This document shows positions 16,934 to 53,376 of a stretch of DNA of 64,000 nucleotides, piece after piece. The translations under genes and the position numbers were made by a program. The number at the start of each line of letters is the position of its first letter. The stretch's first letter is position 1. Below the pieces are notes generated by a model. The model had not been told where the DNA came from. It did not search any database and worked only from the letters and a program-made list of their open reading frames with translations. The stretch is from a virus: IMG/VR virus record IMGVR_UViG_3300020193_000003; one strand, given 5' to 3'.

Positions 16934-17298
16934 ACGACGAGGAATTTATCAAAATAAGACGGGAAATAGAGTCGATGACCAAAGACGATATCCACACCAA
17001 ATTCAATTTGCCCAGAGAGATGGACTTGAGCGAGTTGCCGATGATAGACGCGACCGCGGACAGGTTCTTCCCACCACGCGTCCATCCGTTGGCGAAACAG
17101 ATGGTTGCACGCCTACTGGACCATTCGATTCAAAATGGAGATAGTCCGTTGCAAACAAGGATAACTATGTCAATTGCTGTACCGATTATCGCAAAAGCGT
17201 TCGCGGGCGGAAACGAGGCGACCTCGGTCGACCTCGAGATTGACGAGCTTGAGCGAATCGGCGACAAAATACGGAGGTTGATCGACGATGAAAACTGA
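16930..17298 (+). CDS. Small acidic hypothetical protein (122 aa)
   Basis: ATGA overlap with the upstream ORF. Confidence 0.7.
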   Translation: MNDEEFIKIRREIESMTKDDIHTKFNLPREMDLSELPMIDATADRFFPPRVHPLAKQMVARLLDHSIQNGDSPLQTRITMSIAVPIIAKAFAGGNEATSVDLEIDELERIGDKIRRLIDDEN

Positions 17299-17863
17299 TG
17301 ACACGGGAGTGAAGGCGGATCCGCTTGGCGGCCTGCTGCCGCAGGAGGTCGTCACCGGCGACATAATGCGCGGCTACGGCCCGCGGCGCGGGAACCTCGA
17401 GCGGTTGCTGCGCTACTGGAGACCGATAATGAAAAAGCCTGGCGGCTTCCGGAGATGCAGGGTGATCCTGGCGAACCACCCCGAGCTCTACCCGCTGAAC
17501 AACATCTGCGCCTGGTTGCACCACGAGACGACGGGCCTCTGGCCCAACGAGGGTTGCCACCACCCGGGGATGAAGAACTGCAGGAGGAAGTTGCGCGGAG
17601 TGGTGAACGGGTCGCTGTGGAGCGACTCGGATTTTGACGACCGCATCAGGAAGCTGACGAGGAGGGTGACCAAGAAGAAGGACCTTCGGTCCAGCGGTGG
17701 AATCGACGCGGCGCCACCGTACGAGCCGTTCGTCCCCGTCATCACCGACGACGACTGGGACCACGCCTGGAAGGTCATGGACGACTTCGTGAAGATGGAG
17801 ACGAAGTTCGTCGCATTCGTGTGCGACGACAACAACTGGGAGATGTTCGACTCGGATGTATGA
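17288..17863 (+). CDS. Head-region protein with a Cys/His motif (LxRYW...PGGFxRC...CAxLHxxxTGxWP)
   Basis: Overlaps both neighbours in the operon; the motif resembles, from memory, one in actinophage head-module proteins. Confidence 0.65.
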   Translation: MKTDDTGVKADPLGGLLPQEVVTGDIMRGYGPRRGNLERLLRYWRPIMKKPGGFRRCRVILANHPELYPLNNICAWLHHETTGLWPNEGCHHPGMKNCRRKLRGVVNGSLWSDSDFDDRIRKLTRRVTKKKDLRSSGGIDAAPPYEPFVPVITDDDWDHAWKVMDDFVKMETKFVAFVCDDNNWEMFDSDV

Positions 17864-19949
17864 CCTTACGAAGGCGACCGAGTGCTGTCCCGGCAAGGAG
17901 ACGGTGACCAGGACGATCCTGCCGTCCATCGCCGTCTCGAGGGACAGCGTCTACACCCTCCCGTTGTCCGTGGCGATGAGCAAGCAACATGCGGTCGACT
18001 TCAAGTGCTACCAGCTGGTCAAGGTCGGGCCCCACGCGGAGGTGTACGACCACAGAATCAAGTTCAAGGCCGGTCTCGTCAGGTCGGACAATCCCGCCGT
18101 GCGCGCGGCGCAGGCCGTCGCCGGATCGGTGATCCCGGGCAACCTCTCCAGCTTCAGGAGCCCCGGGCGCTCGGCGATGTGGTCGGCGCTCACGCCCGGG
18201 GGGAGTTCGCCGATCCCGAGGGCTGGTCCCAACCCCCTCGCCAGGGCCGCCGCCGTCGCGTTCCCGAAGCCCGACAGGGGGTTCCGTTGCCCGGAGGGAT
18301 TCCAGTTCGGTGGGCAGTTCACCGACAAGTATTTCTCGACGTGTGGCAAGAAGCTATTCGTCCTCGCCGTGTCCATGCTGACGGGTGGCCCGCAGCAAAT
18401 TCCTCTGAGGTCGCCGCGTCTCACGAGGGAGCTGAACATATCCGGCATCCCGCTCGTCCCGATAGGCAACGCGGGTCAGGTGTCGTTCACGAGGAGCCCC
18501 GACATAGAGATACCAAAGGTCGGCTCGACCAACTTTGGCTCGTACAAGCAGGCGATCAAGAACGTCGCCTCCGAGATGACCGAGAGCACGAAGCCCGTCG
18601 CCAGGCTGGTGAGGAGGGACGGCGTCGTGCTCACCCCGCTGGTATCCCCATCCGTCCTGAGGACCGTACCCGACAACAGGAACATGGAGGATGCCGCTTA
18701 CATCTCCTACGTCGTGAAGCCGACGCAGATCGGTGGGCGGGAGCTGGGGATGTTCTCTAACAGCGGAATCAACTCGCTGGTGTATGTGCTCCCCAACGGT
18801 GGGACGCTCACCCTGAGGAAGACGCGCAACCTGAGCAACGGTGAGAGACGCAAGCTCGGCAAGCTCGTGGCCGAGGCGGAGAGGATGCAGAATGGCTCAG
18901 ACGCCGCCGCCAGGATCGAGCACATCGTTGCGGAGATGGACGGTCCGATCTCGTACGAGCAATCCTTCGGCGACCTGCGCGGGCCGAACGACATGATCAC
19001 GATAATCGATCCCAAGACGAAAAGGCAGCGACAGATACGGCGCTGGTACAGGGACGCATTCATGCTCGACAAGGCCCCCAGCCAGACCTCCTCCCGTACA
19101 ACGCAGATAGAGGACGAGGCCGGGATGGTCGAAGACCTCAGCTCCGCCATAGGCATGCTGAACCAGGGCGGCCAGATCGGCAACATATCCCCAGAGTTGC
19201 GAATCCCCGCGATGGACATGAGCAGGGTCGCCGAGAGCAGGCGCCTGAACAACCGCACGACCAACTACAGGATCGGGGACGAGACATTCATCGCCGTCAC
19301 TCCCACCGTCGCCAACGAGCACATCGGGGTGATGGTCGCCGCCGAGGTCCAGTCGCAGCTCGGGGCCCTGTCGCCGGAGGTGTGGTTCGCCGGGTCCGGA
19401 TCGCGCAGGCCGTACATCATCTCCTACCCAGACGACTCCGAGTCGCTGGGACGGTTCGCCAGGAGCACCGGCATGGACCTTGCCGACCCCGAGGACATGG
19501 TGAGGTTGATGATCGCCGACGTGCTCACGGACGTTCGCGATCGCAACCCGTCAAACCTCTTCACGGTCGGCGACACTTTGCGGAAGAGGACCTTCGCCGG
19601 ACCTGTCGCATCCTCCGGTGGGGCTGGCCTGACGCGCGACGAGCTTGGCAGGAGGGTGAACGCCCCGAAACTGGTGGTGCTGAACGAGATCGAGAACTCG
19701 ATGTACCGGGATTTCTTCATGCGGCTGCGAAAGGAGCAGAGGAGGCGCGCGGAGGCGCTGCTCGAGGAGTTGCTTGAGCGGGCGAGGAGATTCGATATGG
19801 GAGAATTCTTCAGGCGCATGGCGATAGACGGAAGGCTCTCGGAGGCTGAGCGCAGGCACATGGACATAGTCAAGGCAATATACGAGAACAGGGTGAGGAT
19901 CCTCTCCGGCTCCCTCAAGTTCGTGAGGAACGTAATAAATGGAATCTGA
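17856..19949 (+). CDS. 697 aa protein: N-terminal RCPxG...FTD...C motif and C-terminal HipA/PI3-4-kinase-like domain
   Basis: EHIGVMVAAEVQSQLG...MIADVLTDVRDRNPSNLF (DRN at 19539, like the DRHxxN catalytic loop); EDEAGM separator (ATG 19125) directly precedes this module. Confidence 0.7.
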   Translation: MYDLTKATECCPGKETVTRTILPSIAVSRDSVYTLPLSVAMSKQHAVDFKCYQLVKVGPHAEVYDHRIKFKAGLVRSDNPAVRAAQAVAGSVIPGNLSSFRSPGRSAMWSALTPGGSSPIPRAGPNPLARAAAVAFPKPDRGFRCPEGFQFGGQFTDKYFSTCGKKLFVLAVSMLTGGPQQIPLRSPRLTRELNISGIPLVPIGNAGQVSFTRSPDIEIPKVGSTNFGSYKQAIKNVASEMTESTKPVARLVRRDGVVLTPLVSPSVLRTVPDNRNMEDAAYISYVVKPTQIGGRELGMFSNSGINSLVYVLPNGGTLTLRKTRNLSNGERRKLGKLVAEAERMQNGSDAAARIEHIVAEMDGPISYEQSFGDLRGPNDMITIIDPKTKRQRQIRRWYRDAFMLDKAPSQTSSRTTQIEDEAGMVEDLSSAIGMLNQGGQIGNISPELRIPAMDMSRVAESRRLNNRTTNYRIGDETFIAVTPTVANEHIGVMVAAEVQSQLGALSPEVWFAGSGSRRPYIISYPDDSESLGRFARSTGMDLADPEDMVRLMIADVLTDVRDRNPSNLFTVGDTLRKRTFAGPVASSGGAGLTRDELGRRVNAPKLVVLNEIENSMYRDFFMRLRKEQRRRAEALLEELLERARRFDMGEFFRRMAIDGRLSEAERRHMDIVKAIYENRVRILSGSLKFVRNVINGI

Positions 19950-22900
19950 GACCTTCTTCTCCACGATCACCGACTCGGCGACCAACACGACGTTCGCCGT
20001 CGTCGTCGTCGACGGGGGGAGGGTCACCGCGCACGGGTCCATGAAGCAGGGCAAGGACTGGGCGGACTGGGTGAACCGGGGCAAGAAGTCGTTGGACCAG
20101 GTCTCATTGTCTCTGGATCCCTCGTTGCGCATGTCGAAGTTCGTCCCGTTGACGAGGGATAACCTGATGTCGAGGTACTCGTCCTTCGGCCCGACCACCG
20201 TCAAGGGGCTGGCCAGCATCATAGAGAGCAAGTCCGTCCCCGAGCCCCTCGCGACGAAGTCCGGAAAGCAGGACGCCAAGGCGGCGGAGGTCAACGAGGA
20301 GAAGGCTCCGTCGACGGAGCCGGAAAACGAGCCGGAATCCGAGCCGATAGCGACGTGGCTGCTCGCCGACGTCGGGATAAGCATGTTCGACGTCCAGATC
20401 AAGGCGGAGGCAATCAACTTCAAGGCGAGGCAATTCGCGAGGAACATGGACTTCGCCTCTTTCGTGACCTGCGTCAAGGGGTCGAGGGCGACCGTCTCCG
20501 AAGGTCGTTGGAGGACCATGCCCGTGGTCGGCCGGCAGGTGTCGGACGTTCTCAACAAGTTCGACAGGAAGATCAAGACGGGCGCTTTCGCGCATCTCGA
20601 CAAGCAGGGGTACTTCGAGAAGTTGCTACCGATAGGTATGGCAAACCTGCCCCCGCCGCACCTCGTGCGGAACGCTGACTCCGACCCGTTCATATACGAG
20701 GGAATTCCGTACATAAACGCCGGGAGGGGGATACTTGACCCCACTCCGCCGGGGACCAATCAGGTCGTTCGCGGCATCAGGTCCGTCGGCGGGGTTCTCG
20801 CAGAGATAGTGGACAAGCCGTCGAGGGTCAGAAGAATGACGAGGCGCGAAGACGAGGCGGACCGCCTGAGGTCCATCACCGCGACGACGAACGACCTCAA
20901 CCGGATAATCCCCGACGCGCGGAGCGAGGCGACAGGGCAGAGCAGGCTCAGGAGGAGGTTGTCGGCGCTCACGGACGCAATAGAGCCGGCGAACGTCTCG
21001 CCGTTACGGCTTGATCGCCCGGCGACGAGCAGGGAGAGAAGGAGGGTGCTCGAAGGTCAGGCCCGCATCGCCACGCAGGAAAACCGAACCAGGCGCAATT
21101 TCGCGGCCGACGCAGAGGCCGCGATGAGGAATGAGAGGGGTGACTCCCCGGAGACGCCCTCGGTGGTCAGGGCTGCTGAGCAAAGGACGCCGGGCGAGGT
21201 TGTGCCCAGCTCGGGTGACCCGACGCGCGGCGAGAGGGGGAGCGACCCGGGCGGGAGCGGGGGCGGCCTTCTCAACAGACTCTCCAGGCGATTCTCCAGA
21301 ATCTCCAATCGGATCGCCACCGGCGAAGACAAGACGCCAGAGCCAGACTTCGACGACAGGACCGAGATACCGTCCGCGCCAGTCGAGACGCCGCGCGTGG
21401 TGTCGGAGGACCCGTGGGTCATGGACAGGGACACGAGGGAACGCTTGCTCGCGGCGTTGGTCAAGGCCGTTCAGCCGGGCACGTACGCGACGTTCAGCTC
21501 CAGATTCGGGGAGGACGAGGTGGACTGGCCGGATTTCACGCCGTCCGAGCAGTCGGCGCTCCTGCGCGAGCTTGGGTATCGCCGCGACGAATTGCTCAGC
21601 AACGTAGCGGAACTAATGACTCCCGAGTTTTCGGCGGACAAGGACTACAGAAGCGACGGGGTTGTCACCCCGGAATCGGTGATGGAAGCCATCGCGAACG
21701 ATTTCGTGTCGTTGAGGCCGGGTGGGGTGAACCTGTACGCCGACGTGATGTCTCTCGTGGCGATCAACGACATGCTCTCCTCGAAGGACTTCGAAACAGA
21801 AGCAAGGGCGTCCGCGTGGAGGATGATCGACAACAGGAACAGGAGCGTCGTGTCCAAGAGAGCGGACATTCAGCGCAGGGACGTCAGGGATGCGGGCTCG
21901 ACGAGAATTCAGGGATCAATCGGGGAGAGGACCGTCATAGCGGGGGAACCGCCGAAACAACCGTCTCCAATCAGGCCAATGCTCTCCCTCAGCAAACTCC
22001 AGCCGATGAGGCTCAGGTACCAGCCGGAGAAGCCGGCCGGGATGAAAGAACTGTCCGAGTACTCCGATGTGGAGCGAGAGGCGATACTGAGAAGCGCCAT
22101 AGAGATGAGGGGCAACATCGTTGACTTCCTGCGCCAGAACTTGGGCATCCCGGCTGACACGGAGTTGACCGAGGACATGCTGGCGGATTGGATGTCAAGG
22201 CTGGACGAGCAGACCGCTAAGCGGGTCGGCATGTACGCACACAACCTGATCGTCCTTGACGGCATGATACCCCTGGTCATCGGCTCCGACAAAAATAACG
22301 CAGATGTTCAGTGGTCAAGTCTCACCGAACCGGCGAGGAACAGGATCCTCTCGAATGCGAACGTGGGGCTGGTGCCGCAGGTTCCCAAGACGAACGTCCG
22401 CAAGACCAGAACGCGGCCGCCGAAGCCGCCATCCGCACCGCAGACCAGTGCGACGCCGTCACCAGATGCTCCGACAACAGTGCCCGGCGTGTCCGTGCCG
22501 ATCGGTATGTCAACCGCACCAGGGAAGCTTGACGCCTACAAGGGCGACGTCGTCGGCGACTCACTCGACGTTCTGGATGTCACGGACCAGGTCGTTACCT
22601 GGACCCTCGAGGACGGAACGCAGGAGACCAAACCGATCGCGTCCCTGGGCGCAAACAATCAGTACGACCTAACCAACGCGATCATTCAGGACGGCATCAC
22701 CTACGTGATGGAAAGAAACCTCGGCATCTACAGGGACCCGGCGTCCGGGCTGTACCTGACCGACTACTCGAGGGTTCCGATATCGGTGGACACGACGATA
22801 ACGCCCGCGTCGAGGCTGCTACCGGTGCAGAAATCAAGGAACATGCCGGTGCGAAGCTATCCGCAGATCACCCTGAGGGAGGCGGACGCCAACAAACCCT

Positions 22901-25488
22901 ACGGCCTCAACACAAACATGAAAAAGACGCAGATTGAGATGTTGAGCGAGGTGCTCGGCATAGACGCCCGGCAGGCGCAGGAGCTGGTCGGCAAGGTCAT
23001 CTACTTCGCCCCCAACGTCTCCCCGTCTAGGTCAATGGACAACTTCCGGCAGGCGGCGATGCTGCTGCTGAACGTGTCGTCAATCGGCACGGGGATACCC
23101 GACAGCGAAAAACTCAACTTGCAGTTGCTCGACGTCGTGGACATCCCAGAAGGCTCGGATCAGATCGAGGCCTACCTAAATCACATCGGGAGACCCGACA
23201 TCGCCAACGCCTACGTCGCCGCCGGGAGACCAGCGGATTTCCTCTCGTGGAACAGCTCCGCCAGGAGCGCGGCCAACATACCCGAGTCGCAGATACTCCC
23301 GCAGCACCTAGAGGGGGCTAGGTCAAATACGTACCACCGACGTCGTATGACCTCGATATTCGACCAGGACAAGGACGTCCCGGGAGAAGACACCACCGTC
23401 CTCGTCCCGGGAATGACAGCTGCCGCAAAGCCGAGAGTTCGCAAGATGATCGTCCTGTGGAGGCACCCAGACAACTACATCAGCAAGTCGGGTCGTTACT
23501 ATTATTCTCCCACAAAGACGCAAGCGATCGAGGTGGCGGCGGTCGTCAACAGGGCACTGGCGACCGACGATTCTCGGGACTGGTACCACGCATTCGAGGT
23601 GGTTCGCAGCACCTACGAGACGGCCAAGGCATCCCGCGACGCCTCCCTGAGATCGTGGGAGAGCGCCCAAGGGAATACGAGCAGGACGCCGAGACCGCGC
23701 CGGGAATTCGTCTTGGCCGGCGACCTCGTCGAGCAACTCGAGACAATCATCGCCGACATCTTCGGGCCGAACATGCACAAGGTCGCAGACTCGGTCAGGC
23801 AAGAGAAGGGCCTGCGGGCGAAGATCGCGAACGACATGGGGCGCATGCGCAAGCGGGCGAAGGCTCTCGGTGTCCGGAACGTCGTCGGCCTCGAGGATGG
23901 GGCCCTCATCCCGCCGGTCGACGCCACCGGCAGCCCGCTCCCGCCTCGCTCGCCGCAGGAAATCCTCGCGATGCTGGAAAAGCACCAGTCGCTCGGTTTC
24001 CTGCCGCACATCCCAAGGGACCTGGGGCCCAACGATGCGCTGGAGATATCCGAAATTTCCGATGAGGCGATAAAGACGCTCGCGGCGATCGCCTTCTCCG
24101 TCGAAATGAAGCTGGACCCGGAGACGGGCAGACCGCTGCAGGAAGTGACGCCAGAAACAGTCGACAACAAGTACCTGTTGCACAACGCCATCCAGTTTTT
24201 GACAGGGAACAAGGGGCGCCCGATCACGGTGACCGCAGAAGAATTCCAGCTCCTCGGAACCTCTTTCCTCCCAGACCAAACCGAGAGCGTCGCGCCGGCA
24301 AATTTCCCGTACAACTTCTACATAGTGCGCAGGGGAATCGCACGCTCAAAACGCGGCAAGACCGCCAATGCCATGGCGGAGGACCTCATCAATGGGCCGC
24401 TTTACACCAAGATCGACAGCGGCACCGCCGGCGGCTACGGCCTCAACTTCGCAAGGCCCAACGCTGGAATGGTCGACGGTTACGGGGGCAACGACCCGTT
24501 GGGGGACTTGGTCTTGGCCGCCGTGCCCAAGACGGCGCGCGTCGACAACAGAGTCAGGATGACCGTGCTGTACGCGGAATTGCAGGAGATGTTCGGAGCC
24601 TTCTTCACCAACATCACGCACTTCAACGGAACCGAAAAAACGATGGCGATCGACCTTGACGCCACCAACGACCCGGACTGGAGCGCCGACGACCAGAAAA
24701 ATCCGTTCTTCAGGAGGAGCAGACCGAACAGGGCGCACGCCTACTACGTGCCGCACGGTGGGGAATCTGTTACGGATCACAGGGGCCACCGCGCCTTGGG
24801 CGAGGAACTGACCCTACTTGCGAAAGAAATGGGCGTCACCATCCCGAAAGTAGACACCGCCGATCCCGAGGCGATTAGGGGGCTCGGTAATGTGATCATG
24901 CTCCTTGCCGCCGAGAAATCACGGAGGGAAATCGCAAGAGGGGCTGGCCCGTTCGTAGAAAACGCCACCGCCACCGACCGGGCAATGGACAACCTTGCCG
25001 GGCCGCAATGGTGGAACGCCACGAGGGCGCAGGTCTTCGGATGGATGATCCAAATGGAAATTCTCAAGTCGATGGAGATAGCGAGGATGAAGGCCCTCGG
25101 CAAGGTTCCGTGGAACGACAGAATAGCCGAACTCGTCGCCGCCCAGGAAATCATGACTTACTGGAACGACGAAATCATCCAGGCGATGCTGTTCGGCGTG
25201 GACGTCGGCGCCGCCGACGACAGTTTGCCCCTCACCATGAACCCGGCGAGAATCTTCAGGGGTTACGGAATCGGCAGCCACGTCATGGTCTACAACCGGT
25301 CGGCATTGGTTTTCGTCTCCCGGCCACTCACGCGATCCGGCGAGCTGGCTATCGTGGAGTTGGTGAGGGACCCGAGGATAAGGAAGCCCGGAGAGCCGAG
25401 CATGGTCTGGAACTCCTTCCACGGAAAATGGATAAAGGACCCGGACTACAAATCCAGCGCACCCGCAGACGACGAGGACGGAACATGA
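19939..25488 (+). CDS. Giant protein (1849 aa) with the NADSDP...DPTP motif and a possible C-terminal ADP-ribosyltransferase-like domain
   Basis: Long ORF overlapping the upstream gene; motif at ~20617-20754; DAEAAM (ATG 21124); YIVRRG...GGYGLNFA...VMVYNRSALV (24319-25314). The ART-like call is tentative. Confidence 0.75.
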   Translation: MESETFFSTITDSATNTTFAVVVVDGGRVTAHGSMKQGKDWADWVNRGKKSLDQVSLSLDPSLRMSKFVPLTRDNLMSRYSSFGPTTVKGLASIIESKSVPEPLATKSGKQDAKAAEVNEEKAPSTEPENEPESEPIATWLLADVGISMFDVQIKAEAINFKARQFARNMDFASFVTCVKGSRATVSEGRWRTMPVVGRQVSDVLNKFDRKIKTGAFAHLDKQGYFEKLLPIGMANLPPPHLVRNADSDPFIYEGIPYINAGRGILDPTPPGTNQVVRGIRSVGGVLAEIVDKPSRVRRMTRREDEADRLRSITATTNDLNRIIPDARSEATGQSRLRRRLSALTDAIEPANVSPLRLDRPATSRERRRVLEGQARIATQENRTRRNFAADAEAAMRNERGDSPETPSVVRAAEQRTPGEVVPSSGDPTRGERGSDPGGSGGGLLNRLSRRFSRISNRIATGEDKTPEPDFDDRTEIPSAPVETPRVVSEDPWVMDRDTRERLLAALVKAVQPGTYATFSSRFGEDEVDWPDFTPSEQSALLRELGYRRDELLSNVAELMTPEFSADKDYRSDGVVTPESVMEAIANDFVSLRPGGVNLYADVMSLVAINDMLSSKDFETEARASAWRMIDNRNRSVVSKRADIQRRDVRDAGSTRIQGSIGERTVIAGEPPKQPSPIRPMLSLSKLQPMRLRYQPEKPAGMKELSEYSDVEREAILRSAIEMRGNIVDFLRQNLGIPADTELTEDMLADWMSRLDEQTAKRVGMYAHNLIVLDGMIPLVIGSDKNNADVQWSSLTEPARNRILSNANVGLVPQVPKTNVRKTRTRPPKPPSAPQTSATPSPDAPTTVPGVSVPIGMSTAPGKLDAYKGDVVGDSLDVLDVTDQVVTWTLEDGTQETKPIASLGANNQYDLTNAIIQDGITYVMERNLGIYRDPASGLYLTDYSRVPISVDTTITPASRLLPVQKSRNMPVRSYPQITLREADANKPYGLNTNMKKTQIEMLSEVLGIDARQAQELVGKVIYFAPNVSPSRSMDNFRQAAMLLLNVSSIGTGIPDSEKLNLQLLDVVDIPEGSDQIEAYLNHIGRPDIANAYVAAGRPADFLSWNSSARSAANIPESQILPQHLEGARSNTYHRRRMTSIFDQDKDVPGEDTTVLVPGMTAAAKPRVRKMIVLWRHPDNYISKSGRYYYSPTKTQAIEVAAVVNRALATDDSRDWYHAFEVVRSTYETAKASRDASLRSWESAQGNTSRTPRPRREFVLAGDLVEQLETIIADIFGPNMHKVADSVRQEKGLRAKIANDMGRMRKRAKALGVRNVVGLEDGALIPPVDATGSPLPPRSPQEILAMLEKHQSLGFLPHIPRDLGPNDALEISEISDEAIKTLAAIAFSVEMKLDPETGRPLQEVTPETVDNKYLLHNAIQFLTGNKGRPITVTAEEFQLLGTSFLPDQTESVAPANFPYNFYIVRRGIARSKRGKTANAMAEDLINGPLYTKIDSGTAGGYGLNFARPNAGMVDGYGGNDPLGDLVLAAVPKTARVDNRVRMTVLYAELQEMFGAFFTNITHFNGTEKTMAIDLDATNDPDWSADDQKNPFFRRSRPNRAHAYYVPHGGESVTDHRGHRALGEELTLLAKEMGVTIPKVDTADPEAIRGLGNVIMLLAAEKSRREIARGAGPFVENATATDRAMDNLAGPQWWNATRAQVFGWMIQMEILKSMEIARMKALGKVPWNDRIAELVAAQEIMTYWNDEIIQAMLFGVDVGAADDSLPLTMNPARIFRGYGIGSHVMVYNRSALVFVSRPLTRSGELAIVELVRDPRIRKPGEPSMVWNSFHGKWIKDPDYKSSAPADDEDGT

Positions 25489-25925
25489 GAGATCCCGACG
25501 GAAACCCGAGAGACCCCAACGCAATACGCATGACGGAGCCCGAGCAGTTGGAGATGATGTCCGACTATGCGTCGGTGGCCGAGGACGCGAAGTATCCACC
25601 GTTCACGCTGCCGGGCAACACGAAGGACGAAGATTTCCTTTTGATCCTCTCCAGGGAGTACGACCATTTCCTTTACGGCGAAAAGCCCTACGACTCATTT
25701 CGGGCCGTGCAGGAGGCATACTCGGATGAGCTGGTCGAATCACGCGCGTGGAGGTCGCTTGCGTACTCCCCGCAGGAAGCGGCCATGGAGGTCATCACGC
25801 GATCCCTGAGGGACGCCAGTGTCCCCGCCGAAGAAATCGAGTATCGTGCCGAGAGGCTGTACATCTCGCATGCCAAGACGCAGTACATGGGCGATCTTGA
25901 ATTTTTGCCGTGGGAACAGCTGTGA
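25485..25925 (+). CDS. Small acidic hypothetical protein (146 aa, MRDPDGNPRD...)
   Basis: ATGA overlap at 25485-25488; C-terminal part of track ORF 25008..25925. Confidence 0.7.
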   Translation: MRDPDGNPRDPNAIRMTEPEQLEMMSDYASVAEDAKYPPFTLPGNTKDEDFLLILSREYDHFLYGEKPYDSFRAVQEAYSDELVESRAWRSLAYSPQEAAMEVITRSLRDASVPAEEIEYRAERLYISHAKTQYMGDLEFLPWEQL

Positions 25926-26857
25926 GAGAGAAGGCCACCAGGGAGGACGCCCTCAAGATCGCCCGCTACATGGGTTGCCGAGGGGCTCATCAGGGCGAGA
26001 ACGGGGATTGGTTGCCGTGCGCCGACGCCGAGACGCTCAGTCGTCTGTCCTCGGCAGCGGAGGACGACGCGTGGTTGCTGCGCTTTCAAAAGGACGTGCA
26101 TTCGGGGAACGGACCCGTCGGGGGCGTGGCGGCGAACGTGGACATGAACGGCAGGAGGAAGAGGGGCGTGAGACCGTTCGACGTGCCACCCCCGGAGTTC
26201 GGGGATGGCAAGTCGGCCAACAACTACACGAAGCCGAAACTGAGGGGGAGCATCAAGAATCGCATCATGGCGGGCTCGCAGGGGGGCAAGCCAGGGCAGT
26301 GGTCGGCGCGCAAGGCACAGCTCGTCGCGCAGGAGTACAAGAAGCGCGGCGGAGGGTACAGGGGAAAGAGAACCAAGAAGCAACGCTCACTCTCCAAGTG
26401 GACCAAGGAGAAGTGGACGACATCGGACGGCAAGCCGGCGATACGCCAGGGCGGGACGAGGCGCTACCTGCCAGCCAAGGCCTGGTCAAAGCTGAGCCCG
26501 TCCCAGAGGGCCGCCACCAACAAGAAGAAGCGCGAGGGCAACAAGAGGGGACGACAGTTCGTTGCCAACACGGAAGCCGCGGCGAGGGCAAGAAAGACCT
26601 CCACCAAGTCCGGTTACCCAATCATCGTGAAAAAGACGCTCGTGATGCAGAGATTCACGGAGACGGAGGGTCGCGGACCAGGGCCGCGTCGCAAGAAGAG
26701 GGGCAAGAGATGGGAGAAGCTCACCGAAAGGGGTCCCTCCCAGATCGTTTCGACCCCGAACTTCGGCCTCACATCCAAGTCGCAGTCCATTGATCTGCAA
26801 AAGATCGGCACGGAAGTGAGACAAGTGTTGACGACCTCAAGATTTTTGGCGGACTAA
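25922..26857 (+). CDS. Basic protein with an N-terminal GCxG...WxPC motif and a DUF5872-like domain
   Basis: GTGA overlap start; YTKPKLR...GGKPGQWSARKAQLVAQEYKKRGGGY...RYLPAKAW, recalled as DUF5872. Confidence 0.7.
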   Translation: MREKATREDALKIARYMGCRGAHQGENGDWLPCADAETLSRLSSAAEDDAWLLRFQKDVHSGNGPVGGVAANVDMNGRRKRGVRPFDVPPPEFGDGKSANNYTKPKLRGSIKNRIMAGSQGGKPGQWSARKAQLVAQEYKKRGGGYRGKRTKKQRSLSKWTKEKWTTSDGKPAIRQGGTRRYLPAKAWSKLSPSQRAATNKKKREGNKRGRQFVANTEAAARARKTSTKSGYPIIVKKTLVMQRFTETEGRGPGPRRKKRGKRWEKLTERGPSQIVSTPNFGLTSKSQSIDLQKIGTEVRQVLTTSRFLAD

Positions 26858-26931: not shown

Positions 26932-29900
26932 ATGGACGACTCAACAGAACAGGGCGATTGTTGTCCTATCTCGGGGGGGGAAATAGAGCAGAAGGACATC
27001 GCCTTCGGTCCCAGGCGGGTCCGTCCGGATAGTTTTGACGCATACGTTGACAAGGAATCGGCCCGCGCAAGGGCGCGGATGCTTGGGTGCATCGGAATAC
27101 GACAATACAGCTCGACGGCGGGCGGGACCGTCTGGATGCCGTGCAGCAACGAGTCCGACTACAGGAAGGTGACCGGCCAGGACAATTTGTCGCGGAGACA
27201 GCGCAGGAGGATGCTAAAAGCCGCCTTCGCCGACGACCTGGAGACCAAGGCCCTCGGCTCAACCATCGGGACAGTCAGCGGTCAGGTGAACATGAACCCG
27301 TTCACCGCCATAGACGCAGACCTGGACGGTCTCGTACTCGAGGGCCTGCCGCAAATCAACATGGGTCGCGGGGTGCCCGACCCGACGCCGGGAAGGGCGG
27401 AAATTCCATCGGCGCCGACGTCACCCCTTAGGCGGATGGACTGGTCTCCGTTCGATATGGCGCGGCCGACGCAGGAAGTTCCAACGCCGCCCGTTCGCAA
27501 GCGCGATCAGAGGATGAATCGTCCGAGTGCGAAGCTGCGAATGGAGCAGTTCAGGGACAACGTGGAGGCGGCGCTGAAGGACGACCTGTTCGCCAATTCC
27601 TGGCAGAATGCCGTCACGGATTTTATCAACTCGGACATATTGGGGGACGACGACTCCGACCAATATCTCAACCAAAACCTGTACTCCATCGTGGAGGACG
27701 TCGCCTCGAGGGTTGAGTCGGTGGTCGACGAGCAACCAGAGTTTTCTGTGCCGAGGGGTCGCACCCGAAGGGACGCCGCGGACGCAACTTCGGCGCGCCT
27801 GACGGCAAAGGTTCTCGGAACGGTGTCCGAATTGATGAACAATCCGCCGGACGCCATGACCGGGAGGGACGACGTGGTCAGAAGACTGACATCGTCGTTG
27901 TTGGAATCTGGAGCGAGGAGGGTTGCGGACACGGGCGGAAAGCCAGGCGTGTGGGCCTTCCTGATACAGGCGATACTCGGGGGCGCAATCGGAGTCCAGG
28001 GAGGCTGGGAGTTGCTGGCGAGAGTATTCGGAATAGAGAATTCAACTGGCTGGATCCCTCACCCAACCGGGCGCAGTCTCGAAATCCTGTCACCCAGCCT
28101 TGCCAGACAAAGGTCCAACGAGGCAAGGTCGAGGGCCCTCGAGAGGGTCACGAGGACCATGGACGCCCTGCGCAACGCCGGTTTCGCAATAGCCGACGCC
28201 GGGGACATCCCGTCCGTCGCCGACGACATCGCAGAGGTCTTGGACGGAGACAGGTCAACCGACCTTCCGGGTGACCTGTTGCCCAAGGACACCGCCAAGT
28301 CCAGCTCGCTTGACGAAGTGATCAGGAGGATGAGGGAAGCCACGGGCATCAAGGACAGCGTGGCGACCAGGAGGCGCCGAGATACGCGGACATATGTGGA
28401 GGAGGATTTGATCACCAGGAATCGCATGGATCTCGTCGGCATTCCCACTGGGATCCTCGACGTCTTTGATTCCTCGTCGGTCCCCGCACCGACGCCGTCC
28501 GACGGTTCGGCTGCGAGATTGATCACGTCCGGTGGGGTCGACGGTCTGAATCCGATGAACGCCAAACTGCTGTACGACGCCATGAGCGACCAAAACTTCC
28601 TGCGAACCTTCGTCGCCCCGGCCGACTCGCCGTACGCTGCGCAACTGGCGACCCTTATCGAGCAAGGAAGGCTGCCGAAGGTGGTGGCGGCGATACTCGA
28701 GATGTCACCGGAATCAGTGGAGGATTTCCTCGCAGTCAACCCGAGACCACTGATCATGTCGGCAAGATCAGCCAGGAAGAAGTTGAGACCCGCCGGCTCG
28801 TGGATGGCCCGCATAGACCACGATCCGTTTGAGGTCGCGGCCCACCTCATGCGGGCGAAGGACTACCACATTTCGGCGATAGCGAACGGCTCGGACTCGC
28901 CCGTCCTCCTCGACGCCGTGGACGAGCTGGTCGGCAACAACGCCTCCGAGACCTCCGCCATCTTCTCGTCGATAGTGGCCAACAACAAGCAGAGATTGGC
29001 GGACGCATACGACGGGTCGTTGCAACTGGCGCGGTCGGGGAACGGGCTCCTGATGGCGGCGAGAAACCTGATATCAAATGCGACAGAGAACGATTCCACA
29101 TGGAGTGCCTCACGCAACGCAATATCCGACGCGTCCCGGGCGATGGTCTCCGCAGAGGACGTCTCTGCGGGCATGGCGAACACTGCCTCAAGGTACGGAA
29201 GGAACTACCCGAGGCACAGACGCAAGAGCGGCGACTGGTCGCCAATAGCCAACAAGATACGAGACTCGATCAGGCGCTACAAGTCCCGGTATGGCGCCCC
29301 AGCGGCGAACTCGGCGGACTTGGCGAGGTTCGTGGACTTCTCCTACCCCGAACTTCTTGACGAGGCGGCCGAGCTGATTGACCTGATGAAGCAAAAAATA
29401 GAATTCGGATCCCTCGCCATGGCCGATTACGCAAGCGACGGGTGGAGGAACAGGGATGTCGCCGAGCTGGCCCTTGACGAGTTTGACCCGACGAACCTTG
29501 AGTCCATTTTTGACCCGGGTAGCAGGATGGGCCTGCTGAAGGCGATCGGCGTCAACCTGGCGGCGGCGGCCAAGATGGCGCCGTCGCGATCCGAGCGAGA
29601 CGGAGTGATGGACATCCTCGACGAGGTGAACTCCTGGAGCTTCACCGTCCTCCCGCTGTACACGGAGCCGAGGTCCGTGACATCGCGTCGCAGAGGAATT
29701 TTCCCAAGCGTCTCCAGCGACGCCGAGGCTGGCATGACGGTCAACAGGGGGGTCCCGGAGGACATCAGGCAAACGCTCATGTCAAGATCCGCACCGCTCG
29801 GATCCGAAACTGAGGGTACGCCGAAGATCCGCATGAGAAGAAAGTTGATCGAGAGGGCCAACGAGTTGCTCGCGGCAAAGCAGTCAGACGACCTCGTGGA

Positions 29901-47481: not shown

Positions 47482-48086
47482 GCGATCTCCCTCAGGGGGA
47501 GGAGGAAGCTTCCCGCCTCCCACATCAACCCGATCGAGGCGTACCCCATCACGTCCACGACATTGTCCGTGATCGACTCGTTCTTGGGGTCGTCGGTCGC
47601 ACCCCTCGCCACGAGGTTCTCGAGGCGCGCAACCTTGTCCTGGATCCTCACGATCAGCCCGACCCTGCCGAACCTCCTGATGTTTTCGTGGCCGTAGTCC
47701 ATCTGCTTCCTGACCAGAACCCCGTGAACGTGGTCGGCGATGTTGGTGCTCGACATCATGGACGCCGGGCACACCTGCGAACCGAACATCCTCGCGTAGA
47801 AACCCACCTGTCTCCACGCCTCGGTCACCGCGACGACGGGCGCTGAGTTGCGCGACACGATGCCGTTCTCGTTGAACTGCAGGTCTATGAGGGAGTTCAC
47901 GGAGCTCCTGAGCATCTTGAGCGTTCCGTCCACCCCGTAATCCTTCGTGTTGATCATCGGTCGGTAGTGATTGAGATTGAACGGCCTGCACACGTACTGC
48001 CCGCTCGCGTTGGGAAGGAACAGCAGGAGCGCGTTCATCGCGGCATCGTCCCATGTTGAAGCCGTCACCGGATCAAACCTATTCAA
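47478..48086 (-). CDS. Nucleotide-modification-associated domain 1 (DUF1599-like) protein
   Basis: KQMDYG...RIQDKVARLENL...ESITDNVVDVMGYA. Confidence 0.75.
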   Translation of the reverse strand: MNRFDPVTASTWDDAAMNALLLFLPNASGQYVCRPFNLNHYRPMINTKDYGVDGTLKMLRSSVNSLIDLQFNENGIVSRNSAPVVAVTEAWRQVGFYARMFGSQVCPASMMSSTNIADHVHGVLVRKQMDYGHENIRRFGRVGLIVRIQDKVARLENLVARGATDDPKNESITDNVVDVMGYASIGLMWEAGSFLLPLREIA

Positions 48087-49614
48087 GGACGGCCCCGTAC
48101 TTCCTCGCGATCCACTCCGCGACGGGGGCGGCGACGCCGTTGCCGCACTGCTTGTACCTGTGCGTGTCGCTGACTTCCTCGCCTTCGTCAGTCCACCTCG
48201 TGTGGTCCCTCGGCCATCCCATCAGCGCCTCGCACTCCGATGGCATGAGCCTCCTCACGACCATGTTCTGCACTACGCCGCTGGATTGCTTCGTCCCGGC
48301 GCGCAACGAGTGGTGGATCCCGCCGTCCACGAGCCTGTTGTTGTACTCGTCGTACGCGACGGCGCCGTCGGGCTCGATGACGAGATTCTCGCCGCGCGAC
48401 GACGGCACGCCGCCGTCACCGCCGGACCTGAGGGTCATGGCGAGACCGTCGTTGACGTCCGTGTGGGCCACGGCGTGGCCGGCGCCCCCGGTCCTGAGCG
48501 TCGGGAAGGCGATCTCGGACGGCTGGGCGTCGAGGCACTGGGTGTGGGAGAAACCGATTGCCTGTGCGACCATCGGGGTGTTCAGGCCACCCGTGCCCAT
48601 GAACGCCGTGAGCGTGTTCACCGTGTCCCCCTGCATCCTCACGCCGTCCTGCCGGTGCGCGTGGAAGACCATCGTCTCCGGGTACTCGTAGGCGACCAGG
48701 GTCTCGCTGCCACCGCCGATGTCCCCGCCGGCTGCGCGGAGGGTGCCGATCCCGTCTACATACTTGGAGAAGCTCGACTGCGTGAACACTTGGGCGCCCG
48801 ACACGACGAGATCGGTGGCGTCCTTGTGGTCGCGCGCCTTGATGGCGGAGGCTGTCTCGTCGGAGGCGTAGTCGCCGAAACCGCGCATCCTGAACCCCTC
48901 CTGGTCATGCTCGGTTTCTAGTCCGAAGTCGAGTTGCCCTTGTCCCGGTCCTGGTTCTTGTCCACGACCGCCTGCAGCGCCGCCTTCAGCCGGGGAGGAA
49001 GCGTCTTGTTTCTCCTTATCGCCCTTCTTAGAATGCCTGCGCAAGCCCTCGCCGACAGGTAATATCGGGAAGGTACTTCGCTCTGCGGCGCCAGAATCGA
49101 AGAGAGAACACACGAAGATGCGCCTTCGTCGCTGGGGGATTCCGAAGTGCTGCGCATCCAGCACTGCCCACTCGACAGCCACAGCCCCTGCGTCAGCCAT
49201 TTCGTCGAGGACGACCCCGAAGTCAGCGCCTTTGTTGGAGTTGAGGGCTCCTGGGACGTTCTCCCATATTGCCAGTCTTGGAAAAGTTCCGTTTGTTGCA
49301 TCGCGCATCTCCCTGATAATCCGCATTGCCTCGTGAAACAAACCGGACCGAGAACCAGTGAGACCAGCCCTCTTCCCGGCGACGGAAAGATCCTGGCATG
49401 GAGAGCCGAAGTTTATTGCGTCGACTGGCTCCAGCAACCTCCCGTTGACGTCCTTTACGTCGTAGTGCTTCGGAACGTCCGGCCAGTGCCTGCGGAGGAT
49501 CCGCTGGCACTGCTCGTCCCATTCCGCCTGCCATCGGCAACGCCAGCCGGCGGCCTCGAATCCGAGATCGAAGCCACCGACGCCGGCGAAAAGACTGCCG
49601 AAAGTCAGGGTCAG
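48079..49614 (-). CDS. C5 DNA cytosine methyltransferase (511 aa if it starts at CTG 49614)
   Basis: Motif I SLFAGVGGFDLG lies in frame upstream of the track start; IV GSPCQD; VI ENV; VIII PQRRRR; IX RRLMPSECEALMG; X YKQCGNGV. Confidence 0.9.
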   Translation of the reverse strand: MTLTFGSLFAGVGGFDLGFEAAGWRCRWQAEWDEQCQRILRRHWPDVPKHYDVKDVNGRLLEPVDAINFGSPCQDLSVAGKRAGLTGSRSGLFHEAMRIIREMRDATNGTFPRLAIWENVPGALNSNKGADFGVVLDEMADAGAVAVEWAVLDAQHFGIPQRRRRIFVCSLFDSGAAERSTFPILPVGEGLRRHSKKGDKEKQDASSPAEGGAAGGRGQEPGPGQGQLDFGLETEHDQEGFRMRGFGDYASDETASAIKARDHKDATDLVVSGAQVFTQSSFSKYVDGIGTLRAAGGDIGGGSETLVAYEYPETMVFHAHRQDGVRMQGDTVNTLTAFMGTGGLNTPMVAQAIGFSHTQCLDAQPSEIAFPTLRTGGAGHAVAHTDVNDGLAMTLRSGGDGGVPSSRGENLVIEPDGAVAYDEYNNRLVDGGIHHSLRAGTKQSSGVVQNMVVRRLMPSECEALMGWPRDHTRWTDEGEEVSDTHRYKQCGNGVAAPVAEWIARKYGAVLE

Positions 49615-50484: not shown

Positions 50485-50721
50485 GTGAAGGACGAGAACA
50501 GCCTTGATCCGGCTTTCGTCAAATCGGAATTGGACGAAGCGGAAAAGAAGATCAACAACATCGTCTGCGAACATCACTGGTTCGCGTCGGAGTTCGCTTT
50601 GTATTCGCCACTACACCCCAACGGCGGAGAAGAGGACGAGTTTCTTCACGCCCTCGGAATGGCTCACGATTGGCTGAGACAGGCGATGGTTTACTACGAC
50701 GAAATGCACGAAGACGAATAG
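50485..50721 (+). CDS. Hypothetical acidic protein (78 aa)
   Basis: Fills the gap up to the tmRNA 3' end. Confidence 0.55.
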   Translation: MKDENSLDPAFVKSELDEAEKKINNIVCEHHWFASEFALYSPLHPNGGEEDEFLHALGMAHDWLRQAMVYYDEMHEDE

Positions 50722-51101
50722 TGGAGCTGGGGGGAATCGAACCCCCGTCCGAGCGGATACCGAAGAGATTGCTACGACCGTTCCCGTTTCGGCGCTGACG
50801 CTGCGTCGCCGACGGGTCGGCCGCCTAGTCGCCTAGGCCGCGTCCCGTCTTTCCGGGATGTCGTCGGGCTTTCGTTCCCCGAGGTCAACGGTCTTTCCCG
50901 TCGTCGTCCCCGCTTCTGTTGCCGGGCTGCGGTGGATCGGCCCCGTGTGACCTTGCGGCTCACGAGTGCTCTCCTACCGCTTGATTAGGCGGCGAGAGCG
51001 AACTGCTTGTTGGCAGTTGTTTGGTTGCCCTGTTTTGCGAGTCTGAGCAACTCGGGTCGCACCCTCCACGGACAGACCGATCGTCGAAACCTGTCAGCCC
51101 C
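50722..51101 (-). ncRNA. ssrA: tmRNA, tag peptide (A)ANKQFALAA
   Basis: 5' GGGGCTGACAGGTTTCGAC; 3' GGACGGGGGTTCGATTCCCCCCAGCTCCA; tag frame 51014-50985; TATAAT upstream at 51123-51118. Confidence 0.95.
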
Positions 51102-51158: not shown

Positions 51159-53102
51159 TCACTTGTCGCCCAGTCCCCTCTCCAGCAGCGACATCACCAG
51201 CTGCTCGACGCCCTCCCTCTCCAGTTCGTCCGTGGTTCCGTCCACGGCGGCGTTGACGATCTCGCGCTTCGACTCGATCAGCCTGTAGATCCTCTCGTCC
51301 ACGGTTCCGTCGGCGATCGAGTAGGTGACCATCACGGACCCCTTCTGGCCGAGCCTGTGGCATCGGGAGTAGAGCTGGTCGACGTCGGCGGGCGTCCACG
51401 GAAGCTCCACGAAAAGGACCTTCTGCGCGGCGGTGAGCGTGTGGCCCGTCTTCGCAGCCTGGATGGACAGCACGATGGCCGGGGCCTCCTCGACTGGGAG
51501 CGTCTGGAACTTCCTCTTCGCCTCCTCCACCTCCTCCACCTTCATGCCGCCCTGGATCTTGAGACCGCCGAACTCGGCGGCCAGCTCGTCAACGACGTCC
51601 CTGTGGTGGGCGGCGATGACGACCTTCTGGCCGGCCTCGATGTTCGCCTGCACCCACTCCTTGATGGATTCCATCTTCGCCTTGGCGGCGAGCCTGCGGA
51701 GCACGGAGACCTTCACGAGGTGCAGGTGCGACTCCGTCCTCATCTTGGCCGCGACGGCGGCGGACCTCGGGGACTTGCCGAGCTCCCTGGCGATCTCCTT
51801 GGCCCTCTCGACGAGGTACTCGACGATGTCGTCCTCGGCCTTGGCGTACTCCTTGGCGTGCTTCTCGCTCATGCCCACGTGGTACATGTCGTGAACCACG
51901 TCGGGGAGCTCCGCGAGCACCTGGTCCTTGGTCCTCCTGATGTAGCACGACGACCGGAGCCTGTCGTTGAGCTCCTCGAGGTTGGACGCGCCGCTGAGGA
52001 TCCAGTGGCCGAACTTGTCCTTGAACGCGTCGCAGTAGCGGCGGTAGAAACCCCACTCTCCGCCGAGCTCGTCCAGTCGCCCGATTATGCCGAGCTGGCT
52101 GGCGTACTCCATGGGCCTGTTGGTCACCGGGGTCCCCGTCAGGCACAGGACAATACCCGTGCCTATTCGCTTGGCTATCTTCGTCGCCGCCCTGGTTCGC
52201 TGCGCCTCCTTCGTCTTCAGGTAGTGGGACTCGTCGCAGATGAGGCTCTGGTAATCGATCAGGGCCCTCACCCAGTGGTGGATGTTTGAGTACCCGAGGA
52301 CGAGAACGTCGTGCTTCTCCTCCGGGAAGTTCTTCCTGTCGGTGACCACGGAGACGCTGCGATGCGGAGCCCACCTCGCGTACTCGGCCTTCCAGTTCAG
52401 GACGAGGTTCGGGGGGCAAACGACCACGACCGGGAACACCGAGCACCCGTTCTGCTCGGCGTATTCCAGCGTCGCTATCGCCTGGAGCGTCTTGCCGAGC
52501 CCCATGTCGTCCGCGATGAAGCACCGGCGGGCGTTGAACGCGTAGCTGACGCCCGCCAACTGGTAGGGGAGCAGCTTGCCCTTGATGCCGTCTATCTTGA
52601 TGTCGGCCGACTCGGCCCTTGACGCCTCGTTCATCGTCTTGCTCTCAAGTTTCCGGGACTCTGCGTACGCGCGCAGGTAGACGGGCACGCCCATCTTGAA
52701 CGACTCGGCGAACCCTATGACCTCCATGGCCGAGCTCATCGGGACCTTCCATGCCTTCGTATCCGAGTTCCACGTGACGCCAGGGATCTTCTTGACCTGC
52801 CGCACCTTCACCTCGTCCCAACCGAAGTCGATGTACGCCCAGTTGTCGGTGCATGTTATTCCGCCCGGGTCGTGGAGCCGGCTCGGTGCGTCGAACCTCA
52901 TGACCGCTGGGTCAATCCTGAACCCCCTCGCGGAGGCGAAGTCCCTCGCCTCCCGGATGCTCGTGGCGGGGAAACGCCAGACCTTGCCGACCTTGTCCCA
53001 GCGCGCCCCCCGGATGCACTTGACCGCCTGCACGTCGGACGCGTCGTAGGGGAAGTCCATCACGAGCTCGCCGTCCCCGAGCCACAGGTACTTCTGGCTC
53101 AC
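51159..53102 (-). CDS. SNF2-family (SMARCAL1/HARP-like) helicase/ATPase
   Basis: ADDMGLGKT, DESH, LTGTP, SRCHRLGQ; two N-terminal W-rich HARP-like repeats; GTGA overlap with whiB gives the start at 53102. Confidence 0.9.
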   Translation of the reverse strand: MSQKYLWLGDGELVMDFPYDASDVQAVKCIRGARWDKVGKVWRFPATSIREARDFASARGFRIDPAVMRFDAPSRLHDPGGITCTDNWAYIDFGWDEVKVRQVKKIPGVTWNSDTKAWKVPMSSAMEVIGFAESFKMGVPVYLRAYAESRKLESKTMNEASRAESADIKIDGIKGKLLPYQLAGVSYAFNARRCFIADDMGLGKTLQAIATLEYAEQNGCSVFPVVVVCPPNLVLNWKAEYARWAPHRSVSVVTDRKNFPEEKHDVLVLGYSNIHHWVRALIDYQSLICDESHYLKTKEAQRTRAATKIAKRIGTGIVLCLTGTPVTNRPMEYASQLGIIGRLDELGGEWGFYRRYCDAFKDKFGHWILSGASNLEELNDRLRSSCYIRRTKDQVLAELPDVVHDMYHVGMSEKHAKEYAKAEDDIVEYLVERAKEIARELGKSPRSAAVAAKMRTESHLHLVKVSVLRRLAAKAKMESIKEWVQANIEAGQKVVIAAHHRDVVDELAAEFGGLKIQGGMKVEEVEEAKRKFQTLPVEEAPAIVLSIQAAKTGHTLTAAQKVLFVELPWTPADVDQLYSRCHRLGQKGSVMVTYSIADGTVDERIYRLIESKREIVNAAVDGTTDELEREGVEQLVMSLLERGLGDK

Positions 53103-53347: not shown

Positions 53348-53376
53348 GTAGGTACTCCTTGTAAGTAGCAAGGTGC

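Follow-up and report, generated by a model that had tools for sequence, protein, structure and literature searches.

The stretch of DNA analyzed here (IMG/VR virus record IMGVR_UViG_3300020193_000003; 64,000 nucleotides, referred to below in its full length as the window) comes from a large uncultured phage with a G+C content of ∼62% and carries a single giant open reading frame (ORF) whose product is divided into 12 segments by a short, recurrent peptide. The ORF (positions 26932 to 42663, plus strand) remains open for 5,243 codons, from an ATG at 26932 to the stop at 42663, and encodes a protein of 5,243 amino acids (aa) with a mass of roughly 580 kDa. The translation and its comparison with relatives suggest that the product is a punctuated polyprotein that is loaded into the capsid, cut at the linker peptides by a phage protease, and delivered to the host together with the DNA, a reading to which we give a probability of roughly 55%.

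A regular-expression scan of the giant ORF detected 10 canonical separators that conform to D-[ASIG]-E-A-[GA]-M. The form DAEAGM was found at 29719 to 29736, 30961 to 30978, 34735 to 34752, 36814 to 36831, 40321 to 40338, 40783 to 40800, and 41704 to 41721, and the variants DSEAGM, DIEAGM, and DGEAAM were found at 30229 to 30246, 32947 to 32964, and 39802 to 39819, respectively, with each range beginning at the codon for the aspartate (all features of the giant ORF given here and below are on the plus strand). An 11th, degenerate separator, D-V-S-A-G-M (29158 to 29175), was aligned with x-A-A-M in four full-length homologues, in which its position was thus kept. Only 0.02 copies of the motif are expected from the composition of the protein, compared to the 10 canonical copies and 1 degenerate copy seen, and the maximum in 1,000 shuffles was a single copy. 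The related pattern D.E[AG][GAS]M occurred 15 times in the six-frame translation of the window, and all 15 copies were in plus-strand coding frames; five of them were located in three other large ORFs (1 to 3057, 3278 to 13873, and 19939 to 25488). In AlphaFold2 (AF2) models, the predicted local distance difference test (pLDDT) score was <50 around the separators (residues 162 to 179 and 312 to 327 of a model of segments 8 and 9, which includes the linker at 40321 to 40338, and residues 1 to 58 and 679 to 693 of a model of segment 6), and the separators probably sit in disordered stretches.

The stop of the giant ORF is 295 nucleotides 5′ of the major capsid gene (42959 to 44362, plus strand), the product of which has the HK97 fold (PF05065; E value, 6e-44) with an N-terminal scaffold-like domain. 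The phage is of the portal-terminase type, and the giant ORF is among the late/virion genes, inside the head module. An earlier note on this DNA, made from the sequence alone, had described a single 5,243-aa ORF beside the capsid gene with 11 separators and 12 segments; the ORF proved to be continuous from 26932 to 42663, and the separators and segment coordinates were exact. That note had also named an assembly chimera among the findings that would overturn it. It is scarcely conceivable that the giant ORF is such a chimera or a read-through artefact, because word-index searches of JGI, ENA, and Logan assemblies yielded 14 colinear homologues of near-equal length (4,885 to 5,330 aa) with the same Pfam content and the same module order. 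The protein of the window itself (P0001) was found in these searches to be encoded on a contig of 142,224 bp. The four homologues that were fetched in full were colinear with it from end to end, with 40 to 81% identity per segment.

Capsid relatives were encoded in 285 IMG/VR stretches, and it was via the capsid protein that more distant relatives were found. The closest capsid proteins from cultured phages, with 44 to 46% identity, were those of Brevibacterium and Gordonia myoviruses. A megablast search of phages matched nothing, and tblastn with the last four modules of the giant protein gave weak NUDIX matches only. The host of the phage is probably an actinobacterium, because the nearest cultured capsids are from these myoviruses and because the Clp-N module described below is of the ClpC1 type.

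Nearly every separator position was kept in the four colinear homologues and in a more distant one, and the sequence at these positions was specific to the lineage. The separator read EAGM, [NDS]AGM, PTASM, or GP[IV]GKM, depending on the lineage, and SAGM or SASM in other homologues (identity range, 41 to 92%). Distant relatives had a recurrent peptide of their own in the ORFs 5′ of the capsid gene (ISGRM, ITGAM, TGSM, GLTGA[MVIL], RLSSG, LRSSG, or STRS). Single genomes repeated one variant across several ORFs; relative G004 contained 13 copies of [TV]ASM in at least five ORFs, and relative G003 contained 22 copies of [ED]AGM, all on the coding strand. In G010 (L107), a complete relative of 137.8 kb, the pattern [IVLAS][ST]G[RK]M was matched 17 times, mostly by ISGRM, and 16 of these copies were in the plus-strand run of head-module ORFs that separates the protease gene from the capsid gene. 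One ISGKM in G010 was located outside the head module, in a minus-strand ORF of 1,698 aa (7419 to 12512). It is possible that the code also marks a protein outside the G010 head module.

Individual sites also turned over. The DAEAGM at aa 2602 to 2607 (34735 to 34752) was present in the window and in one relative and was absent at that position from three other lineages; the same three lineages carry a motif just downstream, which the window has lost. The concerted rewriting of many unlinked sites together with single-site turnover points to a short linear motif with one trans-acting reader, as does the finding that the lineage variant is common to several giant proteins of one genome. As judged by these comparisons, the separators are a code that marks several giant head proteins of one genome and that is rewritten in each lineage.

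An invariant methionine at the end of a linker could also be a start codon, and the linker Met codons might be internal translation starts, relic or working, of once-separate genes, so that modules are also made singly. In the lineage of the window, the Met never varies and the next residue is small, which is also the case at true N termini, and GAGG is located 5 nucleotides 5′ of each ATG in the window. In one relative (L035), the zeta module described below is a separate ORF (8618 to 9682), in which the first ATG encodes the Met of an in-frame IAGSM motif, with the preceding ORF ending 75 nucleotides upstream; this split is either a recent fission or an assembly frameshift. However, Shine-Dalgarno sequences are absent from the linkers of the PTASM and GPIGKM lineages, and true gene starts in the window differ in appearance. 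In the GLTGA lineage the codon for the final residue is ATG, GTG, ATT, or CTT, and the RLSSG and LRSSG linkers lack Met. Furthermore, no stop codon is located ahead of any linker Met, so ribosomes would read through. The Ala and Gly codons of the window's motif vary synonymously, and the Leu and Ser codons in other lineages vary freely. Because of this synonymous variation, the lack of Shine-Dalgarno sequences in the PTASM and GPIGKM lineages, and final codons that are CTT (Leu) or ATT (Ile), the separator is, on the available sequences, a peptide-level signal rather than a nucleic acid one. Internal ribosome-binding sites were rejected as a general explanation for the same reasons (no Shine-Dalgarno sequence elsewhere, nonstart codons at the Met position, and synonymous variation), and internal starts are a very improbable explanation of the linkers.

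Three of the segments near the C terminus had a recognizable identity. Segment 8 (39817 to 40335; 173 aa) has a Clp-N fold, the fold of the ClpC N-terminal domain (NTD). A profile of five segment 8 sequences matched the ClpC2 and ClpC NTDs in the PDB (E value, 6e-7), a relationship that was missed by Pfam at an E value of <0.01, and PF02861 was precomputed on P0001 and 11 of 13 homologues. The AF2 model of this segment (pLDDT, ∼80 to 87) was matched by Foldseek to the ClpC1 NTD of M. tuberculosis (E value, 3e-6; template modeling score by target, 0.75 to 0.83). The best PDB sequence match, with an identity of ∼20%, was mycobacterial ClpC2, a stand-alone homologue of the ClpC1 NTD (9p2p, 8b9o, and 8ad9), and segment 8, if released from the chain, would stand alone in the same way. 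In that form it could compete for the adaptors or substrates of ClpC1. The idea of a ClpC decoy is a reasonable lead because the best PDB matches are the stand-alone ClpC2 and the ClpC1 NTD.

Segment 10 (40798 to 41718; 307 aa) is a NUDIX hydrolase, with the domain at 41068 to 41460 (PF00293; E value, 1.2e-10). Its Nudix box is intact, with G-LKDEG-E-DFMTTAA-RE-T-A-EE-V-G-V fitting the consensus GX5EX7REUXEEXGU, and the nearest solved relatives were 2fml, an uncharacterized MutT/nudix protein, and the Nudix part of NadM-Nudix (2qjt). Segment 11 (41719 to 42660; 314 aa) is a zeta-toxin-type P-loop kinase, with the domain at 41959 to 42477 (PF06414; E value, 2e-20). A profile of seven sequences aligned to the zeta toxin 1gvn_B (E value, 8e-5), and the catalytic residues were kept; all seven sequences had the Lys of the Walker A motif (GxxGxGK[ST]), the Asp of DPDD that corresponds to D67, and the equivalents of Arg158 and Arg171 without variation.

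Modules are reshuffled between phages, and the separator is often close to a module edge. The zeta match began within ∼15 residues of the local linker in five relatives, and the NUDIX module ended 20 to 60 residues ahead of a linker in three. NUDIX and zeta modules are adjacent in the window, and three other modules are located between them in one relative (L040). The NUDIX and zeta-kinase pair is the most widespread cargo of the clade, and it may point to nucleotide or cell wall precursor chemistry. The Clp-N, intact-box NUDIX, and zeta-like kinase calls of the earlier note were sustained by the profile matches, and the cassette array that it had proposed was supported by relatives in which the NUDIX and zeta modules are ordered differently and have different neighbors.

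The note had further placed three helix-turn-helix (HTH)-like elements in segment 6 (34750 to 36828; 693 aa), and HTH signals were present there, all of them below threshold. The AF2 model of this segment begins with ∼107 low-confidence residues, which are probably disordered, followed by two helical regions with several HTH-like units: a sigma region 4-like unit at aa 138 to 205, a winged HTH at aa 586 to 630, and an HTH at aa 646 to 674. Pfam matches, none of which reached the cutoff, were to CENP-B_N in 5 of 5 members, to HTH_36 and GntR in 4 of 5, and to HTH_23 (best E value, 2e-4). VIA Z scores to HTHs of sigma region 4, LuxR, and resolvase were 5.2 to 6.6, a range that is common for helical models, and Foldseek found no match to the model at an E value of ≤0.001. 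It is possible that this multi-HTH segment binds DNA or the transcription machinery.

Segment 9 (40336 to 40797; 154 aa) is conserved (51 to 73% identity) and was modeled with a pLDDT of 60 to 80. No known fold was found for it, but the Foldseek list for the joint model of segments 8 and 9 was filled with Clp-N matches, so that segment 9 was barely probed. The note had proposed the segments that it could not recognize as candidate new effector folds; among these, segments 6 and 9 gave no convincing fold match. PDB profile searches of segments 6, 7, and 9 also yielded nothing usable.

Segment 7 (36829 to 39816; 996 aa) is an orphan module. A search of its profile against 1.84 billion proteins returned eight matches, six of them giant proteins of 5,244 to 6,391 aa and two of them proteins of ∼340 aa, at least one of which is a fragment. 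No homologue of 547 to 1,743 aa was found, and the segment appears to be confined to giant proteins of this family. An Atlas look-up of a segment 7 fragment gave viral hypothetical proteins only and a poor model.

The segments closer to the N terminus are segment 1a (26932 to 29172; 747 aa), segment 1b (29173 to 29733; 187 aa), segment 2 (29734 to 30243; 170 aa), segment 3 (30244 to 30975; 244 aa), segment 4 (30976 to 32961; 662 aa), and segment 5 (32962 to 34749; 596 aa). Pfam, PHROGs, and NCBIfam searches gave no family for segments 1b to 5 or segment 9, and the PDB profile search gave no solved relative for segment 9. Segment 3 begins with a perfect 45-nucleotide tandem repeat of 3.1 copies (30252 to 30390) that encodes the peptide DDEPRAIVEPMPEFP; a homologue with 92% identity (P0002) has two copies of the 45-nucleotide repeat.

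Segment 1a consists of an N-terminal domain, a tag, and then an uncharacterized region with no family match beyond DUF3721. The N-terminal domain contains Cys residues and spans aa ∼24 to 100 (27001 to 27231), with a DUF3721-like part at aa 40 to 74 (PF12518; E value, 1.6e-5, which is below the cutoff). In tblastn searches, 54 loci had this ∼75-aa domain just 5′ of the capsid gene. Next in the chain is a shared "address" string, K-ALG-x-TIG ... IDADLDGLVLEG ... GRGVPDPTP (27247 to 27390), which was kept in homologues P0002 to P0013. Similar strings are present near the N termini of the products of three other ORFs (14183 to 16933, 19939 to 25488, and 44508 to 46877), at 14399, 20722, and 45336 to 45440, respectively. 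The consensus of the four head-module proteins is K-x-[LP]-(I)G ... [DN]-x-D-x-D-[GP]-x-[IV]-x-[ED]-G ... G-R-G-x-x-D-P-T-P, and the string is a candidate capsid incorporation tag. The K-[AS]-L-G at the start of the string resembles a [KR]-S-[IL]-G that is located ∼96 residues from the start of the capsid protein.

The gene immediately upstream (25910 to 26857, plus strand; 315 aa) encodes a paralogous DUF3721 domain and a DUF5872 domain, so that two DUF3721-like Cys minidomains are present in tandem genes 5′ of the capsid gene (in 25910 to 26857 and at 27001 to 27231). This upstream ORF is fused to the N terminus of the giant ORF in two relatives, in which its DUF5872 core is 63 to 66% identical to that of the window. 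Across relatives, the N-terminal region is the constant part; in many of them the gene 5′ of the capsid gene encodes only ∼245 aa or one to two cargo modules.

In the mechanism that we propose, late translation of the giant ORF would yield a single precursor of roughly 580 kDa, and its first ∼150 residues, which include the Cys domain and the K-ALG-TIG...DxDxDG...GRGxxDPTP tag, would take the precursor into the assembling prohead. In each D-A-E-A-G-M linker, a phage-encoded protease would then cut at the invariant Met or beside it. The most likely enzyme is an S78 (HK97-type) prohead protease that forms the N-terminal domain of another punctuated giant protein, with an HExxH module as the alternative. 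About 12 pieces would be released, remain in the head, and be delivered into the host along with the DNA; they would include the ClpC N-domain look-alike, the NUDIX hydrolase, the zeta-type kinase, and the multi-HTH protein. Cutting before or after the Met would place Met or a small residue at the new N terminus. Met and small N-terminal residues are stabilizing under the bacterial N-degron rule, and the cut may thus be linked to the stability of the products. The injected host-takeover or antidefense payload suggested in the earlier note would fit the head-module position and the precedents of the T4 internal proteins, the phiKZ and SPN3US ejection proteins, and polyvalent proteins. The anatomy and the cassettes on which that suggestion was built hold, and what it had overlooked was the lineage code, the protease encoded elsewhere, and the N-terminal domain with its tag.

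The giant ORF itself contains no recognizable protease, as there was no S78 similarity with Cantare and DalanDe queries, no peptidase family, and no HExxH. An S78 domain (PF04586) was detected in 7 of 10 related records, and the three records without a match are fragments with an estimated completeness of 44 to 65%. The domain was at the start of a long open frame (785 to 4,580 aa) in all seven, and in five of these seven ORFs it was followed by the lineage's own linker (ASGRM, SSGRM, VTGAM, RLSSG, or DAEAGM, the last of these ∼735 residues into the ORF of G003). The phiKZ and SPN3US prohead proteases cut many head and ejection proteins at AXE, at several sites per protein, and the protease also cuts itself (PMC10052503). 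The S78 enzyme is favored as the cutter because the protease-bearing ORFs carry their own linker, which matches the phiKZ/SPN3US pattern; we estimate that it is ahead of the metallopeptidase candidate considered next by roughly 2:1.

Several observations weigh against processing of the giant protein by an S78 enzyme, or against processing as such. Packaging, cutting, and injection are read here from genes of an uncultured phage, and the S78 domains are found in the relatives rather than in the window. Two cultured relatives, Cantare and DalanDe, showed no such linkers. The [KR]-S-[IL]-G of the capsid protein, which in sequence and position resembles the HK97 maturation junction at the end of the scaffold domain, is constant in all lineages and does not track the linker variant. 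Because this site does not follow the lineage linker, it is possible that the S78 enzyme has another specificity, one that is conserved. A second capsid sequence, G-A-N-M, was considered as a linker-like site and rejected because it is constant in all lineages and so does not follow the code. The window encodes three HExxH motifs, at 2542 (HEFFH), 5357 (HELNH), and 15533 (HEMGH), in the ORFs at 1 to 3057, 3278 to 13873, and 14183 to 16933, respectively, and G010 encodes HEAGHTVDF in a linker-bearing ORF of 1,721 aa, which provides a second candidate cutter. The separator also loosely resembles encapsulin cargo-loading peptides, which would mean docking rather than cutting.

These HExxH motifs suggest that the linkers might instead be cut by a zincin-like metallopeptidase module of the neighboring giant head proteins, either in the head or, as has been suggested for the MPTase domain, only after ejection. 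The G003 and G004 homologues share all three motifs of the window, and an invariant Glu is located downstream of the third (HEMGHxLDxV...GLNSxxExxRD); the indifference of the capsid site to the lineage code would be expected if another enzyme cut the linkers. Thermolysin-type zincins prefer a hydrophobic residue at P1′, a preference that the invariant hydrophobic residue of the linker (Met, or M/V/I/L in the GLTGA lineage) would suit. In addition, processing of polyvalent proteins by an MPTase domain was proposed by Iyer et al. (PMC5512222). However, the RLSSG and LRSSG linkers have no terminal hydrophobic residue, and neither Pfam nor PDB profile searches recognized the HExxH modules or gave any support for a peptidase. 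The HExxH profile matched one of five distant relatives, compared to S78 in five of five of those and in 7 of the 10 records overall. Thus, it seems unlikely that a zincin-like module is the enzyme that cuts the linkers.

It is also possible that the protein is not cut at all and functions as one multidomain "polyvalent" chain, in which the recurrent peptide serves for docking or tethering, as in encapsulin cargo, or is a preferred flexible spacer. Encapsulin shells share the HK97 fold, and the linkers GLTGAM, RLSSG, and ISGRM are loosely similar to encapsulin targeting peptides. The location of the linkers in low-confidence, probably disordered stretches would also be compatible with a spacer. 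However, concerted rewriting at 13 to 22 sites per genome would not occur with a mere spacer, and in the ORFs that carry the protease, its domain is likewise followed by the motif. The capsid proteins are 87 to 88% identical between lineages with differing linkers, and covariation of a capsid pocket with the linker was not evident. An uncut protein is therefore doubtful, and slightly more so than cutting by a zincin.

Cutting of a capsid-loaded precursor, the reading preferred here, can be compared with several known systems. Polyvalent proteins combine several (2 to 15) unrelated effector-type domains in one polypeptide that is encoded among late or structural genes; according to the proposal of Iyer et al., the chain is packaged, travels into the recipient cell together with the DNA, and is split into units, and their paper also mentions NUDIX associations and head proteins with a fused zeta-like kinase (PMC5512222). 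Like these proteins, the giant ORF combines Clp-N, NUDIX, zeta kinase, and HTH-like units with at least seven unknown segments in one chain and is located among late/virion genes, directly 5′ of the major capsid gene. None of the polyvalent hallmark domains (MuF, MPTase, ArdC-N, and others) was recognized in the giant ORF with Pfam, PHROGs, or NCBIfam. The giant ORF is also larger than polyvalent proteins and has 12 segments with a fixed, lineage-specific linker peptide at the joints, and the word "linker" is nowhere in the text of the polyvalent-protein paper (PMC5512222).

The prohead proteases of T4 and of phiKZ-type phages provide a second comparison. T4 uses LxE, whereas phiKZ, 201phi2-1, and SPN3US use AXE, and the N-terminal parts of the substrates are capsid-targeting propeptides (PMC10052503). 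The window is similar in that one short motif is present in several head proteins (15 copies in four ORFs). However, the cuts in T4, phiKZ, and SPN3US mostly trim propeptides of single-function proteins, whereas the motif described here is located between about a dozen unrelated modules. The protease family also differs (S78 in the relatives of this phage versus S77 or S80 in the T4 and phiKZ types), the motif changes wholesale between close lineages, and the maturation-like site of the capsid does not follow the linker motif in the way that the site of a prohead protease substrate would. The arrangement in HK97 (gp4, an S78 protease, and gp5) is similar in that S78 is also the protease family encoded by the relatives, and gp5 shares its fold with the capsid protein of the window, which likewise begins with a scaffold-like domain; the scaffold domain of HK97 gp5 comprises 103 residues (PMC10275583). 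HK97 is not known to have cargo polyproteins, whereas the protease of this clade forms one chain with giant cargo.

Polyproteins that a viral protease processes at short consensus sites are textbook knowledge for eukaryotic viruses. In African swine fever virus, which has a double-stranded DNA genome, the viral protease cuts pp220 and pp62, each the product of one gene, into several virion core proteins (PMC10308890). That virus differs from the present phage in infecting eukaryotes, in its protease family, and in its products, which are structural core-shell proteins rather than enzyme-like cargo. A limited literature search found no published account of such a linker code at the joints of giant phage head proteins. 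What differs here is the combination of a fixed, lineage-private linker at every joint, its presence in several giant head genes of one tailed phage, and cassette-like exchange.

Several other features of the window were recorded. Two proteins encoded ahead of the giant ORF, one of 697 aa (17856 to 19949) and one of 191 aa (17288 to 17863), have relatives with 30 to 60% identity in many related phages and had no Pfam or PHROG match. A minus-strand block contains a transfer-messenger RNA (50719 to 51101; Rfam RF00023, 97.6 bits), for which ARAGORN gave the tag peptide ANKQFALAA, and a tRNA-Arg(CCT) (53749 to 53822). This block adjoins genes for a C5 DNA methylase (48079 to 49437) and an SNF2 helicase (51159 to 53405).

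Taken as a whole, the comparisons raise the possibility, which we consider slightly short of an even chance, of a clade of large, uncultured, probably actinobacterial, contractile-tailed phages with a true polyprotein strategy. Such phages would keep dozens of cargo modules in a few giant head genes, mark them with a private, fast-evolving "cut here" peptide that is read by a coevolving protease, swap them as cassettes, and obtain about 12 host-delivered proteins from one 15.7-kb gene. Orphan modules, such as segment 7 and others, are independently bounded units for screens of structure and function. If the linkers are cut, the polyprotein strategy would extend to tailed double-stranded DNA phages, with ∼5,000 residues and 12 products per gene and several such genes per genome, and it would offer a natural example of protease-substrate coevolution. 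The free ClpC N-domain and the recurrent NUDIX and zeta-kinase pair would then be leads on early host takeover, and the lineage-private cleavage code would be a sequence-only rule with which to delimit hundreds of unknown virion-delivered proteins in metagenomes.

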